A stretch of DNA of 64,000 nt from Candidatus Binatia bacterium (GTDB lineage Bacteria > Desulfobacterota > Binatia > Bin18), in the NCBI GenBank assembly GCA_963664395.2, contig OY761159.2, forward strand, positions 2,432,001 to 2,496,000, in the 5' to 3' direction. Below the pieces are notes generated by a model. The model was not told the DNA's origin. It did not search any database and saw nothing but the letters and a program-made list of their open reading frames with translations. The position numbers and the translations under genes are program-made. This document shows positions 7,409 to 7,887 of this stretch, piece by piece. Positions within the stretch are counted from its first letter, which is position 1. Each line of letters starts with the position of its first letter.

Positions 7409-7438
7409 AAAAAAGGCGACCTTTCCGGAAAGGCCGCC
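7409..7438 (-). terminator. Rho-independent terminator
   Basis: GGCGGCCUUU-CCGG-AAAGGUCGCC followed by U6. Confidence 0.75.
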
Positions 7439-7734
7439 CTCTTTGGTGCGCGTTATGCGCTGAGAATTGACTGTCAGTTGTCTATGCTGTCTGCCCGACC
7501 TGGCGGTAGTACAGCAGGCTTGTTCTTAACCCTGGCTGCTCCGGACTGTTCTCAATCCGTTTTTCCGGTGGCCTTCTCTTGTTAGTCGACCGTTTCCGGC
7601 CCCGTACTTTCGAGCACGACAGTCAGGCCGGGTCTGAGCATCAAGGGAGCGAACAAAACAGCCACTGTATAGCGTGGATGCTGCCCACCGTCGGCGGGCG
7701 GGTATATTCCGGCGGATTTTCCATTCGCACCTCC
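7409..7734 (-). ncRNA. Unassigned ~325-nt structured RNA candidate
   Basis: At least seven helices whose non-canonical pairs are G-U on the minus strand; GAAA tetraloop; CATAAT -10 box at 7740-7745; intrinsic terminator at the 3' end. Confidence 0.6.
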
Positions 7735-7887
7735 TGTTGATTATGCCGTGTCAAGTTTTTTTTGAGAGGCGCGGAACGATTCGGATGCTGGTGAAGGGTG
7801 GGGCTTTTCCCTCAAGCCTGCTGCTTGTCACGCATGCTCTGCAACCGTGGCAACGTGTTACCCGACCGCCGGACTAAGCGTAGTGCA

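Follow-up and report, generated by a model that had tools for sequence, protein, structure and literature searches.

Staphylococcus RNAIII, which encodes delta-haemolysin, and Escherichia coli SgrS/SgrT are dual-function small RNAs (sRNAs). The Salmonella mgtA leader with mgtL is a leader RNA with a proline-rich short open reading frame (ORF), and attenuators classically consist of a leader ORF with an intrinsic terminator behind it. 6S RNA consists of one irregular hairpin of about 180–200 nucleotides (nt) with a large central bubble, and is near-universal. We here describe an element that shares traits with each of these systems. It lies on the minus strand of a 64,000-nt stretch of contig OY761159.2 from a Candidatus Binatia bacterium (hereafter the window; all element coordinates are window positions) and is very probably a real RNA gene of a new family. 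Our overall reading, held with moderate confidence, is that it is an independent gene for a structured, stand-alone regulatory RNA, possibly a dual-function one. The kind itself is familiar, a lineage-specific bacterial structured RNA; it is the family that is new.

Compared with RNAIII and SgrS/SgrT, the element is like them in appearing as a stand-alone, multi-hairpin transcript of several hundred nucleotides, with an internal short ORF preceded by a Shine-Dalgarno (SD) sequence and a conserved non-coding 3' part. It is unlike them in that it has no sequence or Rfam relation to either, its peptide is conserved only in the first six residues, and Hfq was not found. With the mgtA/mgtL leader it has in common a structured RNA, a short ORF with start-proximal proline codons and a terminator-type hairpin thereafter, whereas many Binatia loci are without an attached regulated gene and no Rfam Mg-sensor or riboswitch model matches. 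Like 6S RNA (RF00013) and Ms1 of actinobacteria (the latter as commonly described), it is possibly abundant and longer than a typical base-pairing sRNA; unlike these, it is patchy in distribution, branched in its predicted fold and without a model match. CsrB/RsmZ are likewise multi-hairpin RNAs with GGA triplets, but GGA is not enriched in the Binatia RNA and no CsrA gene was found. The sponge-associated Binatia (Binatota) are uncultured and have been described as methane and methylotroph cyclers (PMC9999580, PMC8262859). A literature search, with supplements and subscription journals outside its coverage, found no published RNA regulator of Binatia/Binatota.

Results

The 4227 models of Rfam 15 were applied to the 64-kb window at their gathering scores, and to positions 7100–8000 at E ≤ 10. 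There were 0 matches at gathering score anywhere in the window, and the permissive search returned no more than three chance-level hits: HIV-1_SL3 (19.6 bits where the cut-off is 33, and outside the element), the Pseudomonas model P34 (14.9 bits against 44, on a fragment of the terminator hairpin and the best hit inside the element) and sR38 (12.4 bits against 50). Five full-length relatives searched against Rfam at E ≤ 1 gave nothing but two chance hits to microRNA models. ARAGORN predicted 0 genes in 6500–8500. The element matched neither RF00023 nor ARAGORN as transfer-messenger RNA (tmRNA), nor RF00010/RF00011 as RNase P RNA, nor RF00169 as signal recognition particle (SRP) RNA; the genome's own copies were located at C1:4698380-4698734 (180.9 bits), C1:166337-166716 (284 bits) and C1:1439714-1439811 (68 bits), respectively. 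The initial annotation, made from the letters of the window, could not match the element to tmRNA, RNase P, SRP, 6S or common riboswitches, and the absence of any confident covariance-model hit bears this out; the novelty stands. A suspected likeness of GGAAAGUCC / CCGGAGCA to RNase P motifs was dropped, since none of the RNase P models matches here and the genome encodes its RNase P RNA at the other site given above.

Homologues were sought with BLAST in 61 related genomes, using window positions 7400–7770 as the query. One strong match per genome was obtained in 18 of the 27 other species of the genus, at 75–93% identity and from window position 7737 on, and none in 9 genomes of the family's other genera or in 24 genomes of the class's other families. 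Second, short matches corresponded to the palindromic terminator on the opposite strand; the element itself is single-copy in the window genome, without repeat structure. A covariance model (R1) of the 149-nt core, whose match in the window genome is 7490–7638, recovered the same 18 genomes and added one full-length copy in a sister genus (genome G063, one of 8 species; 43.7 bits, E 1e-6). R1 found none in the remaining 19 family genomes, from the other eight genera, nor in one further genome of the order. A model of the R1 type with the G063 copy added (R2) yielded nothing further in the 8 sister-genus genomes or in 5 genus genomes lacking the RNA. A 19.6-bit match in G067 was judged a non-homologue, the hairpins being absent.

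Wider sampling gave the same picture. A three-motif scan of one genome for each of 185,579 species returned 13 loci, all confirmed by R1, of which 12 were labelled Candidatus Binatia and 1 Thermodesulfobacteriota bacterium. The same kind of scan on metagenome contigs returned 6 loci; 2 were true, scoring the same as known copies, and are not new. The RNA was not found in 9 of the 27 genus species (three complete single-contig genomes among them) or in 7 of the 8 sister-genus species. Two neighbour genes of the sister-genus locus are held in common with the genus loci (50% identity over 56 amino acids (aa) and 63% over 24 aa), which fits common descent with losses; transfer is also possible. 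The family is narrow: its copies belong to a single clade of uncultured Candidatus Binatia associated with sponges.

Structure was assessed in an alignment of 20 sequences (A3) over 12 helices, comprising the local hairpins, the SD/anti-SD pairing, a 4-bp candidate closing helix and the terminator (72 pairs, 1428 cells). Pairing was kept in 97.3% of the cells. Changes on both sides were seen at 16 of the 72 pairs, against 4.2 ± 1.5 in shuffles that flatter related sequences, and 0 of 500 shuffles reached 16. When the partners were slid by 1–3 columns, only 1–5 such changes were left. Ten of the 16 lie outside the terminator; within it, 6 of 12 pairs were changed on both sides, and its U run is interrupted in most relatives. 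Homologues are present, and so is covariation, as judged by shuffles rather than by R-scape.

Compensation is visible in individual helices. One pair of hairpin H4 is G-U in 15 sequences, G-C in 4 and A-U in 1, and one pair of H5 (CCGC/GCGG; CCAC/GUGG in the window) is G-C in 10, A-U in 3, G-U in 3 and unpaired in 4. The hairpin (U)CGUGCU/AGUACG(G) at 7619–7602 is invariant in the genus and compensated at two pairs in G063 (U-G to G-C and C-G to A-U). One pair of CGGAUUG/CAGUCCG (7559–7542) occurs as U-A (11), U-G (5) or C-G (3), and GCCU/AGGC shows a change from U-A to C-G in G063. Every sequence and helix quoted in the initial annotation was found on the minus strand where it had been placed, including the terminator hairpin at 7438–7415 with its U6. 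Its four local hairpins are kept in relatives, with GGCCG/CGGUC (7601–7588) replaced there by a longer hairpin in a shifted register.

The minimum free energy (MFE) of the 356-nt window stretch corresponds to a z-score of -4.53 on the minus strand against -1.78 on the plus strand. The sister-genus copy gave -4.23 on the RNA strand and -2.57 on the opposite one, and a further full-length relative -4.44 on the RNA strand. A number of the conserved pairs take the form G-U on the minus strand, and both these and the compensatory changes are strand-specific; the strand asymmetry that had been read from G-U pairs is therefore real.

The two proposed long-range helices fared less well, being specific to the window. 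GCGAAUGGAA/UUUUGUUCGC is paired in 70% of cells, with 3 of its 10 pairs unpaired in 17–18 of the 20 sequences. In CCCGGCCUG/CAGGUCGGG the CCCG/CGGG part is kept (90% of cells), whereas the remainder, GCCUG/CAGGU, is paired in 60%, two of its pairs forming in 2 of 20 sequences. The AUGCU/AGCAU extension depends on a 5-nt insertion found in 2–3 of 20 rows. The alternatives GCCUGA/UCGGGC and UGCUC/GAGCA are 97–99% paired, without covariation. Several long-range helices were tried on the aligned sequences; none is settled, and the global topology is not fixed by the alignment.

Along the minus strand from 7763 to 7409, the element runs from an A8 tract and CTTGACAC through CATAAT, the SD, the ATG with its 27-codon frame and the hairpins to the GCGC hairpin and the terminator (Table 1). 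Conservation starts at the upstream block, which is probably a promoter element. The core alignment (A2) has a mean column identity of 94%, against 91% overall. Long invariant stretches of the core include CUCAGACC, GAAAGUAC, AAAACGGA and CCGGAGCAG; those of the 3' core common to both genera include CUCAGACC, GAAAGUAC, CGGGAAAACGGA and CCGGAGCAGCC.

Table 1. Features of the element, by position in the window
Feature	Position	Strand	Observation
Conserved upstream block, A8 tract and CTTGACAC	7748-7763	-	CTTGA invariant and CAC nearly invariant in 19-20 homologues with differing upstream genes
CATAAT, initially annotated as a -10 box	7740-7745	-	AACAAT or AATAAT in relatives; TAACGC in the sister genus
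Junction of ~82-nt deletion	7736-7737	-	Alignments against 18 relatives; BLAST homology begins at 7737
8-nt Shine-Dalgarno sequence AGGAGGTG	7728-7735	-	Invariant in 20/20 homologues
Short ORF, 27 codons and TGA (MENPPEYTRPPTVGSIHAIQWLFCSLP); ATG 7724-7722, TGA 7643-7641	7641-7724	-	Overlaps hairpins H4 and H5
Hairpin H4, GCCCGCC-GAC-GGUGGGC	7683-7699	-	7 pairs; 98.6% of cells paired
Hairpin H5, CCAC-N8-GUGG	7662-7677	-	CCACC/GGUGG in the sister genus
Most conserved core, 149 nt	7490-7638	-	Alignment A2, model R1; hairpins 7619-7602, 7601-7588, 7559-7542 and 7538-7512
Candidate closing helix GCCU/AGGC	7628-7625 with 7574-7571	-	Inside the core
Hairpin GCGC-AUAAC-GCGC	7448-7460	-	100% of cells paired; one G-C to A-U double change
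Terminator: G+C-rich 10-12-bp stem 7438-7415, A/U pairs extending to 7443, U6 7414-7409	7409-7443	-	12 pairs; 99.2% paired

All 20 sequences share the arrangement AGGAGGUG-N5-AUG without variation. Of the genome's 7690 long open frames, only 125 have an SD match of at least 8 nt, and there are 20 occurrences of AGGAGGTG with an ATG 3–7 nt behind it. Judged by its sequence, the short ORF has what qualifies as a ribosome-binding site. The frame is proline-rich; only its start, M-E/D-S/N-P-P-E/D, is conserved, and the first ~11 codons are fixed at the nucleotide level. The initial annotation overlooked both this internal SD/ATG short ORF and a 5' truncation of the window copy.

In the 18 relatives and in G063, ~82 nt separate the CTTGACAC..AATCAA block from CAGGAGG; this segment is missing in the window copy. 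It comprises, in order, a purine-rich start, two hairpins, an A-rich linker and CCUCC. The first hairpin is GGGUCU/GGACCC in the genus and GUGCCC/GGGCAC in G063, and the second is GACGG/CCGUC. The CCUCC anti-SD pairs with the GGAGG of the SD in 98% of cells, sister genus included, and the 5' domain is able to pair with the ORF start in each genus, through different helices. The full-length form is ~400 nt in relatives (predicted folds, the window copy included, 330–416 nt), so that the initially annotated length of ~325 nt is right for the window genome and ~82 nt short at the 5' end for its relatives. In MFE folds of full-length copies from both genera, the molecule is closed by a helix between its purine-rich 5' start and a run of mostly pyrimidines immediately upstream of the GCGC hairpin. 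This predicted closing helix shows one-sided changes only, and the window copy is without its 5' partner.

No copy of the lost ~82-nt segment was found elsewhere in the window genome. The closest relative (93% identity) retains it, which indicates a recent loss. Six runs of unspecified kind from three studies contain 97–100% of the sampled words of 7400–7770, as would be consistent with a genuine junction.

Contigs from four metatranscriptome runs in 3 studies, one run being labelled sponge metagenome, were placed on 6400–8900. All four runs supplied contigs covering the RNA. A 281-nt contig of run X1 lies wholly within the element (7436–7716; depth figure 70.5), and a 470-nt contig of X11 spans 7212–7682 with 10 differences and one 1-nt gap (depth 82.4), while contigs of the flanking genes in these two runs have depth figures of about 2–12; such depths are per-contig figures that cannot rank genes. 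The X4 contig covers 7488–7701. That of X10 covers 7576–7737 and continues with 46 nt matching the 5' domain of relatives. Neither the uncovered stretches in X1, X4 and X10 nor the contig stops, which differ among studies, are evidence of transcript ends. The presence of the RNA in these libraries is compatible with high abundance, without being proof of it. Metatranscriptome coverage, one of the checks named in the initial annotation, was thus obtained; the 5' and 3' ends it was also to provide, and the strand, are not given by the contigs. Conservation, structure, the lack of coding character and the presence in RNA libraries uphold the idea of a stand-alone, multi-hairpin non-coding RNA, possibly new.

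The X11 contig also covers a ~215-nt spacer (7191–7408, minus strand) that most relatives lack. Read-through, a 5' untranslated region (UTR) or a second small RNA might account for this cover.

Discussion

The reading that we favour is an independent gene for a regulatory RNA whose full-length form would have three modules: (i) a two-hairpin 5' domain with a CCUCC able to pair with the RNA's own SD; (ii) an 8–9-nt SD, AUG and short ORF opening with Pro-Pro codons; and (iii) a ~230-nt 3' body with at least 6 hairpins and invariant stretches, ending in the GCGC hairpin and terminator. In the window copy module (i) is gone, with the RNA starting almost at the SD. The invariant 3' core may be the effector, acting in trans by binding a protein or mRNAs. 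The SD/AUG/Pro-Pro module would recruit ribosomes, masked by CCUCC in full-length copies and exposed in the window copy. Translation or anti-SD masking might then tune the fold, stability or activity of the RNA, as in a riboregulator of the dual-function type. We put forward a trans-acting regulator with a ribosome-engaging module as a tentative proposal, somewhat short of even chances.

A number of points weigh against this reading. The sequence set, 19 genus sequences (91% mean column identity) and a single divergent one, G063, is shallow for covariation; the shuffle control flatters related sequences and so overstates significance. Long-range pairings predicted by RNAalifold differ between 19 and 20 sequences, that is, with G063 added, and none of the competing closing helices has more than 1 covarying pair. 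The contigs show neither ends nor strand, and RNA libraries may contain DNA. The X11 contig crosses the terminator by ~200 nt, stopping 22 nt before a downstream 68-aa ORF. The ORF frame in the sister genus is 48 codons against 27, and its stop is not conserved. Comparison of the first six codons between the two genera (MESPPE and MDSPPD) shows 4 differences, every one at a third position, a pattern that is post hoc and limited to six codons. The window copy, lacking the 5' domain, indicates either that this module is dispensable or that the copy is decaying. A role in trans, a target or partner of any kind, and translation of the ORF are all conjectural. Neither Hfq (PF17209) nor CsrA (PF02599) was found in the genome, which is 96% complete.

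The promoter belongs among these points. The A-tract and CTTGACA suit, by sequence, a -35 with an UP-like element. The own promoter of the initial annotation, with CATAAT (7745–7740) as its -10 box, does not hold up: CATAAT begins only 3 nt past TTGACA (7754–7749), so the two cannot serve as a -35/-10 pair. No conserved -10 occurs at 16–18 nt after CTTGACA, and neither -10 candidate is kept in G063. A consensus scan of the minus strand over 6800–8300 flagged no promoter-like and no terminator-like site, missing the hairpin terminator too.

The absence of a detected Hfq makes an Hfq-dependent sRNA unlikely. sRNA biology in this organism would proceed without CsrA and Hfq, the two classical proteobacterial RNA regulators/chaperones.

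The alternative that survives best, although unlikely, is that the RNA acts in cis as the leader of the 68-aa gene (6984–7190, minus strand), a 5' UTR resembling a riboswitch or attenuator in which the proline-rich ORF and the terminator would set read-through into that gene. In all 19 genus loci the gene follows the RNA on the same strand, and in 8 of them it is directly adjacent, starting about 30–60 nt after the terminator hairpin. The X11 contig, which spans the terminator, is as compatible with read-through or a leader as with a stand-alone RNA. Constant same-strand linkage uninterrupted by another gene, which a leader or attenuator would show, was not found: in 9 of the 19 loci an opposite-strand GNAT gene lies between, and in 2 (the window included) a spacer of 210–300 nt. 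Seven genus genomes have the 68-aa gene without the RNA (best upstream covariance-model score 12 bits, with none of 7 motifs present). Conversely, G063 has the RNA, its terminator facing a convergent gene, and a search of that genome with the 68-aa query did not find the protein. Nor did an antiterminator alternative emerge, terminator-stem pairings not having been searched systematically. The linkage is positional rather than obligatory, which argues for an independent gene, and the element probably stands alone rather than serving as a cis-leader.

An ordinary mRNA for a 27–48-aa protein, with a long structured 3' UTR, is an improbable alternative. It would account for the SD and ATG at ideal spacing in 20 of 20 sequences, for a stop kept in all 19 genus copies (TGA in 18, TAA in 1) and for the N-terminal M-E/D-S-P-P-E/D, kept across genera via third-position changes only. 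Against it, the peptide shows no purifying selection in the genus: changes by codon position are 13/20/17, and pairwise codon differences are 1095 non-synonymous against 310 synonymous. The +1 frame is as open as that of the short ORF, length and C-terminus differ in the sister genus, and conservation is higher beyond the stop than within the ORF. With the same codon counts and the differing ORF length, the conserved peptide of a dual-function sRNA was not found either.

Where elongation factor P (EF-P) is lacking, ribosomes stall at XPPX motifs, PPE and PPD among them. A ribosome loaded through the unusually strong SD and the AUG, and stalled at Pro-Pro codons 4–5, which are kept in both genera with synonymous changes only, might switch competing helices of the 3' core, and hence a trans effector domain, in a manner dependent on EF-P or proline supply and gated in full-length copies by the CCUCC hairpin. 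We consider this version, too, improbable. If true, it would make the element a translation-sensing structured RNA without an attached gene, specific to sponge-symbiont Binatia.

Still less probable is a divergent housekeeping-type RNA acting on a core machine, either RNA polymerase-binding (6S/Ms1-like) or ribosome-associated. RF00013 finds no 6S RNA in the window genome or in any of the 41 family genomes, the contigs on the element carry the highest depth figures in the 2.5-kb stretch, and its long invariant stretches would be in keeping with a conserved protein partner. Universal presence is to be expected of a housekeeping RNA, whereas this one is patchy (18/27 genus species, 1/8 sister-genus species, 0/19 genomes of other genera). 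Its predicted fold has several branches instead of a single long hairpin around a central bubble, and RF00013 gives no hit in the region at E ≤ 10. The empty result across all 41 family genomes suggests that the model may be blind to this lineage, so that it is uninformative here, including as to any complementary distribution. The family's 6S RNA, if one exists, escapes recognition by RF00013.

Very improbable is that the element is no RNA gene at all, its conservation reflecting instead a protein-coding gene or a pseudogene, on whichever strand, or an element at the DNA level. Long antisense open frames do occur in some relatives, up to 200 aa at one locus. No frame on either strand is consistently open, however: none is stop-free in more than 4 of 19 sequences, stop counts vary by sequence, and no alignment segment shows 3-periodicity of substitutions (p 0.28–0.93). 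The strand-specific compensatory changes and G-U pairs, and the single copy without repeat structure, also tell against this alternative. The weakest alternative, the CsrA/RsmA-sequestering sponge suggested in the initial annotation from the GGA motifs, can practically be set aside: there are eight GGA triplets, some at hairpin-loop edges, but dinucleotide shuffles average 7.2 ± 1.9 (427 of 1000 reach 8), the MFE fold leaves two bases unpaired in 1 triplet, one in 4 and none in 3, and the PF02599 search that found no CsrA in the 96%-complete genome was positive in control searches of E. coli, B. subtilis and T. maritima.

As a 330–400-nt RNA, the element is a concrete candidate for an Rfam family and a handle on regulation in an unculturable symbiont. 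Beside its invariant non-coding body it has two uncommon traits, a ribosome-binding site of top strength with a proline-rich mini-ORF and the lack of an obligatory downstream gene, which may raise it above the familiar kind should they prove functional. With a functional ORF, it would join the few dual-function RNAs on record. The window's species provides a natural experiment, in which the 5' domain masking the ribosome-binding site has been lost. If the element is merely another lineage-specific sRNA, its value would lie mainly in annotation.

Neighbouring genes

The 68-aa ORF is conserved in 25 of the 27 genus species and was not found in the family's other genera, making it a genus-specific small protein; it has no Pfam, NCBIfam or PADLOC match. 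The GNAT gene (PF13302) on the opposite strand, for example L004:1942-2502, recurs at 8 other loci as an insertion or deletion. The gene upstream of the RNA encodes a GYD protein in 16 of 19 loci, and otherwise an EVE protein or, in the window, a secreted SNase-like protein. A protein partner was sought by neighbourhood among SNase-like, EVE, GYD, nucleoside deoxyribosyltransferase and GNAT genes and the 68-aa ORF, and none is constant. Three neighbour proteins are without Pfam, NCBIfam or PADLOC assignment, and the only PADLOC match is a weak one, to the SNase-like protein.

That protein, encoded at 7888–8847 (minus strand) in place of the GYD gene of relatives, has 319 aa, a signal-like hydrophobic N-terminus and a C-terminal SNase domain; its PADLOC match is to the 'SNc+LTD' candidate defence model (E 4e-5). 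Further along the minus strand, at 5368–6096, an AhpC/TSA peroxiredoxin is split into an N-terminal part (5767–6096) and the rest (5368–5748); the break may stem from a frameshift, from an internal stop or from misassembly.

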